Shown here one piece after another: positions 4,785-10,782 of a stretch of DNA of 22,684 bases. The stretch is from a virus. Lineage: Duplodnaviria; Heunggongvirae; Uroviricota; Caudoviricetes. Within the stretch, counting starts at the first letter, position 1; the number at the start of each line of letters is the position of its first letter. The notes beneath the pieces were generated by a model that saw only the letters and a program-made list of their open reading frames with translations, was not told the DNA's origin and ran no database searches. A program made the position numbers and the translations under genes. The stretch covers positions 1 to 22,684 of IMG/VR virus record IMGVR_UViG_2711768076_000014, one strand, 5' to 3'.

Positions 4785-6341
4785 ATGACCAGTCTTCAGC
4801 AGCGCGCGGAGCTTCATCGCCAAATCTGGCAAATTGCTAACGATGTCAGAGGTTCGGTCGATGGATGGGATTTTAAGCAATACGTTCTGGGCGCGCTTTT
4901 CTACCGTTTTATCAGCGAAAATTTTTCCAGCTATATTGAAGCCGGTGATGACAGTATCTGTTATGCGAAACTGGATGACAGCGTAATTACTGATGACATT
5001 AAAGACGATGCCATCAAAACTAAAGGCTACTTCATCTACCCCAGTCAGCTTTTCTGCAACGTAGCTGCGAAAGCAAATACTAATGACAGACTGAATGCAG
5101 ATTTAAACAGCATCTTCGTTGCTATCGAAAGTTCTGCTTACGGTTATCCTTCAGAAGCTGACATCAAAGGTTTGTTTGCTGATTTCGATACCACCAGTAA
5201 CCGCCTGGGTAACACCGTTAAAGATAAAAATGCCCGCCTGGCTGCGGTTCTGAAAGGGGTTGAAGGGTTAAAACTTGGTGACTTCAACGAACATCAGATT
5301 GACCTGTTCGGTGATGCCTATGAGTTCCTGATTTCTAACTATGCGGCAAATGCCGGTAAGTCAGGCGGTGAGTTCTTTACACCGCAGCACGTCTCCAAGC
5401 TGATTGCACAACTGGCTATGCACGGGCAGACCCACGTTAACAAAATCTACGACCCGGCAGCGGGTTCCGGCTCACTGTTGTTGCAGGCGAAAAAACAGTT
5501 TGATAACCATATCATCGAAGAAGGCTTTTTCGGTCAGGAAATCAACCATACGACCTATAACCTGGCGCGTATGAACATGTTTTTGCACAACATCAACTAC
5601 GACAAGTTTGATATCAAGCTTGGCAATACGCTGACTGAACCGCACTTCAGAGATGAAAAACCGTTTGATGCCATCGTTTCTAACCCGCCGTATTCGGTGA
5701 AATGGATTGGCAGCGATGACCCGACGCTGATTAACGATGAGCGTTTTGCCCCGGCTGGCGTTCTGGCCCCCAAATCCAAAGCTGACTTTGCGTTTGTATT
5801 ACATGCGCTGAACTATCTTTCGGCCAAAGGTCGTGCTGCGATTGTCTGCTTCCCGGGTATTTTTTACCGTGGCGGCGCAGAGCAGAAAATCCGTCAGTAT
5901 CTGGTCGATAATAACTATGTCGAAACCGTAATTTCACTGGCTCCGAACCTGTTCTTTGGCACCACCATTGCCGTAAACATTCTGGTTCTGTCCAAACATA
6001 AAACGGATACCAACGTTCAGTTTATTGATGCCAGCGAACTGTTCAAAAAAGAGACCAACAACAATATCCTGACCGATGCCCATATCGAACAAATTATGCA
6101 GGTATTCACCAGCAAGGAAGATGTTGCTCATCTGGCAAAATCTGTCGCGTTTGAAGCCGTTGTAGCGAATGACTATAACCTGTCGGTGAGCAGCTATGTA
6201 GAATCGAAAGATAACCGCGAAATTATCGATATTGCTGAGCTGAATGCAGAACTGAAAACTACGGTCAGCAAAATCGACCAGTTGCGTAAAGATATCGACT
6301 CAATTGTGGCAGAGATTGAAGGTGACGAGGTGCAGGGATGA
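4785..6341 (+). CDS. hsdM: Type I restriction-modification N6-adenine DNA methyltransferase subunit HsdM, 518 aa
   Basis: SAM-binding [10 protein letters not shown] and catalytic NPPY ([12 protein letters not shown]); N-terminal HsdM-type domain; 4-bp ATGA overlap with hsdS. Confidence 0.9.
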
Positions 6342-7543
6342 GCGAGTTAAATTATCTGGAAAAACTGCTAGATGGGACAGAGGTGGAATGGAAAGCCCTT
6401 GGAGATGTCACGAGTGTCTTGCGGGGAAAAAGGCTAACTAAAAATCTGCTTTCAGCAGAAGAAAAATTCCCGGTATTTCATGGCGGCTTAGAACCGTTAG
6501 GATATTACAATAAGTCGAATCGTCCGGCTAATACCGTTATGATTATCAATGTTGGCGCTTCAGCAGGTACTGTTGGCTATAGCACCGTTGACTTCTGGTC
6601 CTCTGATGGATGCTTTTGCTTAGAGCACAATGAGCTATTAAATAATAGGTTTTTATATTTCGCACTGATTGGTTATCAAAGTTTGCTGAAATCAAAGGTG
6701 AGAGTTGCGGGCATTCCAACACTTGATGCTATCGTAGTTAATAAACTACTTATCCCCATCCCCTGCCCAGAAAACCCGGAAAAATCCCTTGCCATCCAGT
6801 CTGAAATCGTTCGAATTCTGGATAAATTTACTGCACTTACCGCTGAGCTTACCGCTGAGCTTACCGCTGAGCTTAACATGCGTAAAAAACAATACAACTA
6901 CTATCGCGACCAGTTATTTAGTTTTGGTGCCCACGATGTTAAACGTCTGAAATTAGGAGAGCTATGTGTAATTGGAGACGGTTTGCATGGTACTCCAGAA
7001 TATGACGCCAACGGTGATTATTTCTTTATCAATGGAAACAATTTAGGCTATCAAAAAATATCATTTAACGATAACACAAAAAAGGTTAATGATTCTATGT
7101 TTAAAAAACACGGAATTCATTTTGACCCAATAAATACTGTTTTCCTGTCAATTAATGGCACAATTGGAAATGTTTCCTTTTACAATAATGAGAAGATCGT
7201 ACTCGGTAAGTCTGTGGCCTATTTTAAAATTAAATCACCTGAACTCCACACTAGATATCTTTTCTATTTCCTGCAAACCAATTACGCAAAACAGTATTTT
7301 GAAAATCAAAAAACAGGTTCAACTATTAAAAACTTAGGTTTAAAATCGTTGAGAGCATTTGAAATACCTATCCCATCATACGATGAACAACTTTATATCG
7401 TCGCCACGATGGATAAATTTTACAACCTGACAAACTCCATCACCGAAGGTCTCCCGCGTGAAATCGAGTTGCGCCAGAAACAATACGAATACTACCGTGA
7501 TTTACTGTTCAGTTTCCCGAAACCTGAAACTGTCAGTAATTAA
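6338..7543 (+). CDS. hsdS: Type I R-M specificity subunit HsdS (type IC, EcoR124-family), 401 aa
   Basis: Translationally coupled to hsdM; central conserved region with (TAEL)x3 followed by [17 protein letters not shown], echoed at the C-terminus as [19 protein letters not shown]. Confidence 0.85.
6836..6871 (+). repeat. 3 perfect tandem copies of 12-bp cttaccgctgag inside hsdS (encodes TAEL x3)
   Basis: Read directly from the sequence; corresponds to the TAEL repeat whose copy number sets spacer length in EcoR124I/II recognition sites. Confidence 0.9.
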
Positions 7544-7665: not shown

Positions 7666-10600
7666 ATGACTCATCAAACACACACCATTGCTGAATCCAA
7701 TAACTTTATCGTCCTTGATAAGTACATCAAAGCTGAGCAAACAAGCGACAGCTACCAGAGCGAATCGGACCTGGAACGTGAACTGATTCAGGACCTGCGG
7801 AATCAGGGTTATGAATTTATTTCGGTAAAATCACAGTCAGCGATGCAGGCCAACGTTCGGGAACAGCTTCAGAGCCTCAATGGTGTGGTGTTTAATGACA
7901 GCGAGTGGCGGCGTTTCACGGAGCAGTATCTGGATAACCCGAGCGATGGCATTCTGGATAAGACCCGTAAAATCCATATCGACTATATTTGCGACTTTAT
8001 TTTTGATGACGAGCGTCTTGAGAACATCTATTTGATAGATAAAAAGAATCTCATGCGCAATAAGGTGCAGATTATCCAGCAGTTTGAGCAGGCGGGTTCT
8101 CATGCTAACCGTTATGACGTCACGATCCTGGTTAATGGCTTACCACTGGTACAAATCGAACTGAAAAAGCGCGGCGTGGCGATTCGTGAGGCTTTCAACC
8201 AGATACATCGTTACAGTAAAGAGAGTTTTAACAGCGAAAATTCCCTGTTTAAGTATCTGCAACTGTTTGTCATTTCTAACGGCACCGATACCCGTTACTT
8301 TGCCAACACCACAAAGCGCGATAAAAACAGTTTTGACTTCACCATGAACTGGGCGAAATCAGACAACACGCTGATTAAAGACCTCAAAGATTTTACCGCT
8401 ACCTTTTTCCAGAAACATACTCTGCTTAATGTTCTGGTGAACTACAGCGTGTTCGATATTAGCCAGACGCTACTGGTGATGCGACCGTACCAGATTGCCG
8501 CTACCGAACGGATCTTATGGAAAATCAACAGTTCCTATAAAGCGAAAAACTGGTCTAACCCCGAAAGCGGTGGCTTTATCTGGCACACTACCGGTTCCGG
8601 TAAAACACTGACCAGCTTTAAAGCCGCGCGCCTGGCAACAGAACTGGACTTTATTGATAAAGTCTTCTTTGTGGTCGACAGGAAAGACCTCGATTACCAG
8701 ACGATGAAGGAATATCAGCGTTTTTCCCCAGACAGCGTCAACGGCTCGGAAAATACCGCAGGCCTTAAACGAAATCTGGATAAGGACGATAACAAAATTA
8801 TCGTCACCACTATTCAGAAACTTAATAACCTGATGAAAGCAGAAAGCGACCTGCCTGTATACAATCAGCAAGTGGTGTTTATATTTGATGAATGTCACCG
8901 CAGCCAGTTTGGAGAAGCGCAGAAAAATCTGAAGAAGAAATTCAAACGCTATTATCAGTTTGGTTTTACCGGCACACCTATTTTCCCGGAAAACGCTTTA
9001 GGCTCAGAAACGACCGCCAGCGTATTTGGTCGTGAATTGCATTCATATGTGATTACCGATGCGATTCGTGATGAAAAAGTGCTCAAATTCAAGGTGGACT
9101 ATAACGATGTGCGGCCCCAGTTTAAATCTTTAGAGACAGAAACCGACGAGAAAAAACTGAGTGCGGCTGAAAATCAGCAGGCGTTTCTTCATCCCATGCG
9201 TATACAGGAAATTACGCAATATATTCTGAATAACTTCCGCCAGAAGACCCACCGTACTTTCCCAGGTTCCAAAGGCTTTAATGCCATGCTGGCAGTGAGT
9301 AGCGTGGATGCCGCGAAAGCCTATTACGCGACGTTTAAACGGTTACAAGAGGAAGCAGCTAATAAATCGGCTACCTATAAACCGCTGCGTGTTGCGACAA
9401 TCTTCTCCTTTGCCGCCAATGAAGAACAAAATGCCATTGGTGAAATTTCCGATGAAACTTTTGATACCAGCGCAATGGACAGCAGTGCTAAAGAGTTTCT
9501 TGACGCTGCAATTCGTGAGTATAACAGCTATTTTAAAACTAACTTCAGCACCGACAGTAACGGTTTTCAGAACTACTATCGTGATTTAGCCCAACGGGTT
9601 AAAAATCAGGATATCGATCTGTTAATTGTCGTTGGGATGTTTTTAACCGGCTTCGACGCTCCAACATTGAACACGCTATTCGTCGATAAAAACTTGCGTT
9701 TTCACGGCCTGATGCAGGCATTCTCCCGCACCAACCGCATTTATAACGCCACTAAAACCTTCGGTAACATCGTCACTTTCCGGGATCTGGAACGCTCAAC
9801 CATTGATGCCATAACGCTGTTTGGTGATAAAAATACCAAAAATGTAGTGTTAGAAAAGAGTTATGCAGAGTATATGGAAGGCTTTACTGATGCTGCCACT
9901 GGTGAAGCTAAACGCGGCTTTATGGCAGTAGTTTCAGAACTGGAACAACGGTTCCCTGACCCTGCCAGTATTGAAAGTGAAAAAGAGAAGAAAGACTTCG
10001 TTAAACTGTTTGGTGAATACCTGCGTGCCGAGAACATCCTGCAAAACTATGATGAATTTGCCACGCTGAAAGCCCTGCAACAAATCGATCTTAGCGATCC
10101 TGTTGCGGTAGAAAAATTCAAAGAAGAACATTATGTGGATGATGAAAAGTTCGCTGAATTACAAACGATTCGTCTCCCTGCTGAACGCAAGATTCAGGAT
10201 TATCGTTCTGCCTATAACGATATTCGTGACTGGCAGCGCCGCGAGAAAGAGGCTGGCAAAAAAGAAAAGTTAACTACTGACTGGGATGACGTGGTTTTTG
10301 AAATCGATTTGCTGAAGTCTCAGGAAATAAACCTGGATTATATCCTTGGACTGATTTTCGAACACAACAGACAAAACAAAGGTAAGGGCGAAATGACCGA
10401 AGAGGTCAAGCGCTTAATTCGTTCGAGCCTTGGGAACCGTGCCAAAGAAGGTCTGGTGGTCGATTTTATTCAACAAACAAACCTGGATGATTTGCCGGAT
10501 AAAGCCAGCATCATTGACGCGTTTTTTACCTTTGCTCAACGCGAACAGCAACGTGAAGCAGAAGCATTGATCAAAGAAGAAAATCTCAATGAAGAGGCGG

Positions 10601-10782
10601 CGAAACGCTATATTCGCACGTCTTTAAAACGCGAATACGCCACCGAAAATGGCACGGAATTAAACGAGACATTGCCAAAACTCAGTCCGTTAAATCCGCA
10701 ATATAAGACGAAAAAACAGACGGTTTTCCAGAAGATCGTCGCGTTTATTGAGAAGTTTAAAGGTGTAGGCGGGCAGATATAA
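7666..10782 (+). CDS. hsdR: Type I R-M restriction subunit HsdR (helicase-nuclease), 1038 aa, EcoR124-like
   Basis: Endonuclease-type D...ELK block ([20 protein letters not shown]), Walker A TGSGKT, DECH box ([10 protein letters not shown]); length and N-terminus [20 protein letters not shown] match my recollection of EcoR124I HsdR; separated from hsdS by 122 bp, suggesting its own promoter. Confidence 0.9.

Follow-up and report, generated by a model that had tools for sequence, protein, structure and literature searches.

The window analysed here, a stretch of 22,684 nucleotides corresponding to positions 1 to 22,684 of the IMG/VR record IMGVR_UViG_2711768076_000014, carries in its left half a complete set of genes for a type I restriction-modification (R-M) system, hsdM, hsdS and hsdR, whose hsdS and hsdR genes are separated by a short spacer. 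The three open reading frames (ORFs), the spacer and the repeats within hsdS are as follows.

4785..6341, plus strand: hsdM, type IC methyltransferase subunit, 518 amino acids (matches in Pfam, NCBIfam and PDB)
6338..7543, plus strand: hsdS, specificity subunit, 401 amino acids (Pfam Methylase_S, in two stretches)
6839..6874, plus strand: three tandem 12-bp repeats that encode TAEL three times, HsdS residues 168-179
7544..7665, plus strand: non-coding hsdS-hsdR spacer, 122 bp
7666..10782, plus strand: hsdR, type IC restriction/translocase subunit, 1038 amino acids

An original prediction, made from the sequence alone, had read this region as a mobilised type IC system with the gene order M-S-R, and that order is borne out by the three ORFs, all of which lie on the same strand and are full length relative to EcoR124. 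The start of hsdS and the stop of hsdM share 4 nt (ATGA), and the two genes appear to be translationally coupled. HsdM contains the Pfam domains N6_Mtase and HsdM_N, matches the hsdM equivalog TIGR00497 (NCBIfam) with 649 bits and has its motif I (DPAAGSG) and motif IV (NPPY) both intact, while HsdR comprises HSDR_N, SWI2_SNF2, T1R_D3-like and EcoR124_C domains, the last of these (PF12008) in residues 728-1031 with E = 1.1e-71, and retains the nuclease residues D151 and E165-x-K167 as well as the GSGKT and DECH motifs.

A type IC system in the leuX island

The family to which the system belongs is indicated by all three of its subunits. When HsdR was compared with all PDB chains, the EcoR124 HsdR entries were the only matches (2w00_A, E = 0, 2250 bits, full length), none of the non-EcoR124 HsdR chains passing E = 0.001, and its identity to EcoR124I HsdR (2w00_A) is about 97%, with about 25 substitutions in the approximately 1000 residues displayed. 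HsdM reaches 1147 bits against EcoR124 M (PDB 7bst_D) across residues 1-517, as opposed to about 65 bits over a partial stretch of about 236 amino acids against the M subunit of EcoKI (type IA). HsdS, finally, aligns end to end with EcoR124 HsdS (7bst_A), its N-terminal, central and C-terminal conserved regions being near-identical and both of its target-recognition domains (TRDs) divergent. More than 70% shared sequence is usual for the HsdR and HsdM subunits of one type I family (PMC10030836). The similarity of HsdR and HsdM to the prototype, the EcoR124_C domain, the order M-S-R, and the TAEL repeats and conserved regions of HsdS are all features of type IC, whereas the weak and partial match to EcoKI M and the order M-S-R rather than R-M-S set the locus apart from types IA and IB (EcoKI, EcoAI). 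Since HsdR, HsdM and HsdS match EcoR124 and not type IA or IB, the predicted type IC identity is upheld; a clustering with type IA or IB families, named beforehand as the observation that would speak against it, was not found.

The prototype type IC enzymes, EcoR124I and EcoR124II of plasmid R124 (PDB 2w00, 7bst), have the same gene order as the window system, and the EcoR124-like plasmid cassettes sampled have the same hsdS-hsdR spacer; the prototypes reside, however, on a conjugative plasmid, whereas the window locus is chromosomal. EcoKI belongs to the same enzyme class (type I, R2M2S1) but has the order R-M-S and occupies the K-12 hsd locus in the immigration control region, a chromosomal site other than that of the window system. 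By homology with EcoR124I, a methylase of composition HsdM2-HsdS1 would methylate a bipartite target, and HsdR would join this methylase, translocate DNA and cut it when unmodified. The length of the gap in such a target is set by the number of TAEL repeats, three of which accompany a 7-bp non-specific spacer in EcoR124II, EcoDXXI and EcoprrI (PMC3874165), and the three repeats of the window HsdS, the same number as in EcoR124II, hence predict a 7-bp non-specific gap. Both TRDs differ from those of EcoR124, and the recognition specificity should therefore differ as well, the sequence recognized being other than GAA N6/7 RTCG.

As regards its location, the first 11104 nucleotides of the window match the chromosome of E. 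coli AMSHJX01 at 99.8% identity, between nanS and a P4-like element at leuX. From the left, the order in that chromosome is fim, nanC, nanM, nanS', HNH endonuclease, AbiEii/AbiEi, DUF4942, hsdM, hsdS and hsdR, and 3' of hsdR there follow the P4-like element, its integrase, tRNA-Leu (leuX), ahr, yjgR and lptG. The leuX island, bounded by lptG and uxuR and associated with a P4-type integrase, is known as hotspot 37; of 6142 enterobacterial loci of this hotspot, 4% have a type IC system, whereas none is present in the immigration control region, the site of the K-12 hsd genes (EcoSal Plus 2025 review, PMC12707154). The match to AMSHJX01 thus agrees with the expectation of a defence island distinct from the K-12 hsd locus. 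Nothing material sets the window apart from the type IC systems of this island that are already described (PMC12707154); it is an instance of them, and a locus of an ordinary, already annotated kind. We regard it as very probable, from these sequence comparisons, that the region is an intact EcoR124-family (type IC) R-M system in the variable leuX defence island of an E. coli chromosome.

The cassette is widespread in E. coli and is not confined to this site. Among 5426 complete E. coli genomes, an identical (100%) 6.4-kb cassette was found in at least 11 chromosomes, those of strains S42, AMSHJX01 and ESBL 15 among them, and related cassettes in 1617 genomes (1170 chromosomal and 781 plasmid places). 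The copies on plasmids (P1-like, IncF and others) are about 95% identical from 3 nt before the hsdM ATG through the hsdR stop and unrelated to the window outside these limits, which agrees with the view of the system as mobilised. In the P1-like phage-plasmid pE148-2 (locus L083), which was compared directly, the cassette comes after phd/doc, has an hsdS-hsdR gap of 121 bp and is preceded by sequence unrelated to that upstream of hsdM in the window; the other plasmid matches likewise begin at the hsdM start codon. The HsdS of pE148-2, 72% identical overall to that of the window, has TRD2 in common with it but not TRD1, a mix that looks like the familiar modular shuffling of recognition domains.

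The hsdS-hsdR junction and its alleles

Between the hsdS stop and the hsdR start lie 122 bp of non-coding DNA, the gap length that had been reported, and the absence of the anticodon nuclease gene prrC from this position is likewise corroborated: tblastn of E. coli PrrC against the window gave E = 6 at best, a PADLOC scan of ten ORFs returned no PrrC hit, and a comparison of the spacer with prrC and its flanks revealed no resemblance (E = 0.59 for the best short match). What does not hold is the implication of the original prediction that a prrC-less form is unusual. The spacer was found at 89-100% identity in 1200 of the 5426 E. coli genomes, at 698 places on chromosomes and 604 on plasmids, and also in 616 plasmid records, whereas a search of the same genomes with Photorhabdus prrC DNA as the probe detected a close prrC beside hsdR in only 6 (4 chromosomal, 2 plasmid), so that in E. 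coli the prrC-less form is the overwhelming norm. In enterobacterial EcoR124-like cassettes, whether chromosomal or plasmid-borne, the 122-bp spacer is the standard form of the hsdS-hsdR junction. The same probe detected a distant PrrC-like AAA ATPase in 14 further genomes; in the sole one inspected, the chromosome of E. coli Ecol_AZ146 (locus L090, 5951-7195, 414 amino acids), the ATPase is situated between hsdS and hsdR of a type I locus that lies in another island and adjoins dynamin-family and GTPase genes.

A direct comparison of the two forms is afforded by E. coli B1 (locus L082), which has at the same chromosomal site the order HNH, SBD-endonuclease, McrCB, DUF4942, hsdM, hsdS, prrC, hsdR. 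Nucleotide identity to the window is 95.8% over DUF4942 and hsdM and 93.8% over hsdR with 240 bp downstream (7687-11022), the corresponding amino acid identities being 97.9% for HsdM and 94.1% for HsdR; apart from the TRDs, the junction is the only difference between the two cassettes. In B1, prrC replaces positions 7529-7686 of the window, from the final 15 nt of hsdS across the spacer to the seventh codon of hsdR (codons 1-7 encode MTHQTHT in the window, MVDCTKP in B1). The prrC allele is devoid of the spacer, its prrC ATG standing 1 nt from the hsdS stop and prrC overlapping the hsdR start by 8 nt. P1-like phage-plasmids have the same two junction alleles at the same position. Spacer and prrC thus appear to be two interchangeable alleles of one junction, of which prrC is the rare one in E. 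coli, and the simplest reading would be that they are exchanged by homologous recombination in the conserved flanks. The prr locus, which encodes EcoprrI, is of the same family as the window system and likewise has three TAEL repeats (PMC3874165), but its order is hsdM-hsdS-prrC-hsdR; as the window has no prrC between hsdS and hsdR, the Stp-triggered tRNA-Lys anticodon-nuclease back-up is unavailable to its locus.

The contents of the junction change considerably beyond E. coli. A scan for HsdR in one genome per species yielded 80 loci from other species, with HsdR 76-87% identical, and hsdS could be located in 74 of these, on which the following counts rest. A PADLOC-PrrC protein lies between hsdS and hsdR in 43 of the 74 (E down to 1.6e-150), and the junction is essentially empty in 7, namely two Erwinia loci and one Serratia locus with spacers of 125-131 bp and four others with gaps of at most 31 bp. 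The remaining junctions hold co-oriented genes for RhuM or RhuM-Fic, YhcG/DUF1016 nuclease, RelA/SpoT-like, Bro-N, Schlafen-AlbA_2 or AAA_14-DUF4143 proteins. Genes inserted at this position usually end a few bases from the hsdR start or overlap it. Outside Enterobacterales, therefore, an occupied hsdS-hsdR junction seems to be the norm.

About 18 of the type IC loci from other species have one or more extra co-oriented genes between hsdM and hsdS as well, among them RhuM/Fic-like, YhcG-like and RelA/SpoT-like genes (loci L006, L008, L013, L018, L026, L036, L042, L047, L048, L050, L054, L061, L068, L070, L072, L073, L075 and L079), and the hsdM-hsdS junction is thus another slot for inserted genes, one that stands vacant in the cassette of E. 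coli.

Hairpins in the spacer and their possible role

The recognizable elements of the spacer are these.

7559..7583, plus strand: hairpin 1, GAUCGGG / CCCGGUC, 11-nt loop, 16 nt after the hsdS stop
7571..7600, plus strand: promoter-like TTAACA-18-TATTTT, candidate hsdR promoter (9/12 matches)
7608..7637, plus strand: hairpin 2, GCCGGAAG (7608-7615) / CTTCCGGC (7630-7637), 14-nt loop
7655..7659, plus strand: Shine-Dalgarno-like AAGGA, 6 nt before the hsdR ATG

Hairpin 2 is the one that had been reported earlier, with the 8-bp arms confirmed at the positions given, and hairpin 1 is accompanied by a run of seven T (T7) 13 nt downstream. Comparison of related spacers suggests that the two structures are maintained. 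In E. coli variants, one pair of hairpin 1 occurs as G-C, G-U or A-U and another as U-G or C-G, the pairing being kept. Hairpin 2 has the same arms in all seven E. coli spacer variants compared (89-100% identical) but a variable loop and variable flanks; the TTAACA and TATTTT hexamers are also unchanged in these seven. Although the Erwinia spacers differ over most of their sequence, they have two hairpins at equivalent positions, the one at the position of hairpin 2 being a 10-bp hairpin of different sequence, and the Serratia spacer clearly retains the first hairpin. Conservation between the E. coli, Erwinia and Serratia spacers is highest in the block TTTGCCA...GCACAAAGGATGCG.

From the anatomy of the spacer and from EcoR124I, in which hsdMS and hsdR reportedly have separate promoters, we infer that hsdR expression is uncoupled from that of hsdMS and that the two conserved hairpins would have a part in this regulation. 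Transcription would be partly terminated or paused by hairpin 1 and the T-run; beyond them would come a weak hsdR promoter, and the hsdR leader would then begin with hairpin 2 or close to it. A possible though doubtful extension of this reading is that the junction is a swap slot, occupied in most species by a gene for abortive infection or another accessory function, and that the enterobacterial spacer is a selected regulatory allele of this slot which, by means of its two hairpins and a promoter of its own, uncouples HsdR from the methylase.

Several observations weigh against such a role of the spacer. A T-run directly after the stem is lacking in both hairpins, so that neither is a canonical intrinsic terminator. 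The fold of the whole spacer is not unusually stable (z = -0.98), and a perfect 8-bp inverted repeat with a loop of 3-20 nt arises in 2% of spacer shuffles, so that hairpin 2 by itself is weakly significant. The second hairpin is ambiguous in Serratia, and RNAalifold, although it recovers both hairpins from 10 spacers, assigns them a covariation term of only -0.35 kcal/mol; because this term is small, the conservation of RNA structure in the spacer is suggestive rather than demonstrated. A promoter and terminator scan of positions 4400-11000 found 11 promoter-like sites where 11.8 would be expected by chance and called no canonical terminator in the spacer, and, given that the counts equal chance, it adds no evidence of its own that an hsdR promoter or a terminator lies there.

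Part of the same evidence could be accommodated if the hairpins did no more than weakly terminate or attenuate one transcript that spans hsdM, hsdS and hsdR, and so reduced the amount of HsdR in proportion to the methylase, with no separate hsdR promoter. The placement of hairpin 1 just after the hsdS stop and of the T7 run behind it suits such an arrangement, as does a promoter-like match that is no better than chance; moreover, hsdR is tightly coupled to the upstream gene in most other species, with stop and start overlapping or adjacent, and co-transcription is on this account the norm of the family. We nevertheless consider this explanation unlikely, if still a serious rival, given that no canonical terminator was called in the spacer, that TTAACA and TATTTT are unchanged in the seven variants, and that EcoR124I is said to possess an hsdR promoter of its own.

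It is very improbable that the spacer is the recent scar of a prrC deletion from a prr-type locus. B1 does have prrC at exactly this junction, in a backbone 94-96% identical and at the same chromosomal site, and the preponderance of PrrC (43/74) over empty junctions (7/74) in other species means that the occupied junction could be ancestral. The spacer, however, resembles neither prrC nor the sequences that flank it, recurs as a conserved unit across 1200 E. coli genomes and 616 plasmids, and is matched in Erwinia and Serratia by a counterpart of 125-131 bp that is similar in structure and shares its conserved ribosome-binding block; furthermore, the differing first seven hsdR codons of the two alleles, MTHQTHT and MVDCTKP, fit recombination in conserved flanks, and thus an exchange of alleles, rather than a simple deletion. 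That the locus is a decayed or methylase-only remnant which has lost restriction is more improbable still, for although type I loci of islands are often degraded and truncated genes are found among its neighbours (in the related locus L001, pseudogenes of nanS and of the SBD-endonuclease), the three ORFs have the full length of their EcoR124 counterparts and intact catalytic motifs, and at least 11 unrelated isolates share the allele at 100% identity.

Neighbouring genes and significance

To the left of hsdM, and divergent from it across a 305-bp intergenic region, is a DUF4942 gene (3646-4479, minus strand). In E. coli this gene is found next to chromosomal type IC cassettes of both forms, spacer and prrC, but it was absent beside the type IC loci of 80 other species and of P1-like plasmids; since it is limited to E. 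coli leuX loci, we rejected it as a part of the type IC module and treat it as a local neighbour. Further left, AbiEi (3181-3645) and AbiEii (2283-3188), both on the minus strand, form a toxin-antitoxin pair (PADLOC E = 3e-53 and 1e-124) that fills the slot between the HNH/SBD-endonuclease genes and DUF4942, which in E. coli B1 is taken by McrBC. An HNH endonuclease gene occupies 989-1639 (minus strand) and is followed by non-coding or remnant sequence (1640-2282), in whose counterpart in related genomes an intact or truncated phosphorothioate-DNA-binding (SBD) restriction endonuclease is annotated. On the other side of the cassette, 15 nt 3' of the hsdR stop, there is a perfect 9-bp inverted repeat, CCTGATCTG / CAGATCAGG (10797-10826, 12-nt loop), which lacks a T-run; the DNA between the hsdR stop and 11022, this repeat included, is shared with E. 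coli B1 and its prrC-type locus.

The right half of the window, 10954-22684, is a P4-like satellite different from the one in AMSHJX01, with the following genes.

11263-12210: retron St85-type reverse transcriptase
12197-13183: retron NDT effector
13811-14092: satellite Ogr/Delta
14089-14640: satellite Psu
15781-18453: satellite primase/DUF927
21422-22684: satellite integrase

Related genomes have the same satellite integrated at leuX; in strain 19SZHZ803Rt, its integrase abuts leuX, yjgR and lptG. No complete E. coli genome of the collection holds the whole window contiguously, the best coverage being 58-60%, and the pairing of this R-M island with this satellite is therefore a rare mosaic. 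A search for a leuX-derived att repeat at the boundary between them (10783-11260) gave an 11-nt match at best (E = 0.83).

The locus has little importance beyond its correct annotation, and the comparative by-product is mildly useful. The strain gains an extra, probably active type I barrier with a predicted N7 gap in its target, beside AbiE and a retron-bearing P4-like satellite, and in those E. coli lineages that have the cassette this barrier bears on phage host range and on the efficiency of transformation. The only mildly new angle is that of the hsdS-hsdR junction as a slot with interchangeable contents, one conserved allele of which is the hairpin-bearing spacer. Because spacer and prrC occur on near-identical backbones, at leuX and in P1-like phage-plasmids, they constitute a natural isogenic pair for studying the contribution of PrrC to a type IC system; and if the proposed uncoupling of HsdR is true, it would help the cassette to establish itself after moves between plasmids, phage-plasmids and the chromosome.

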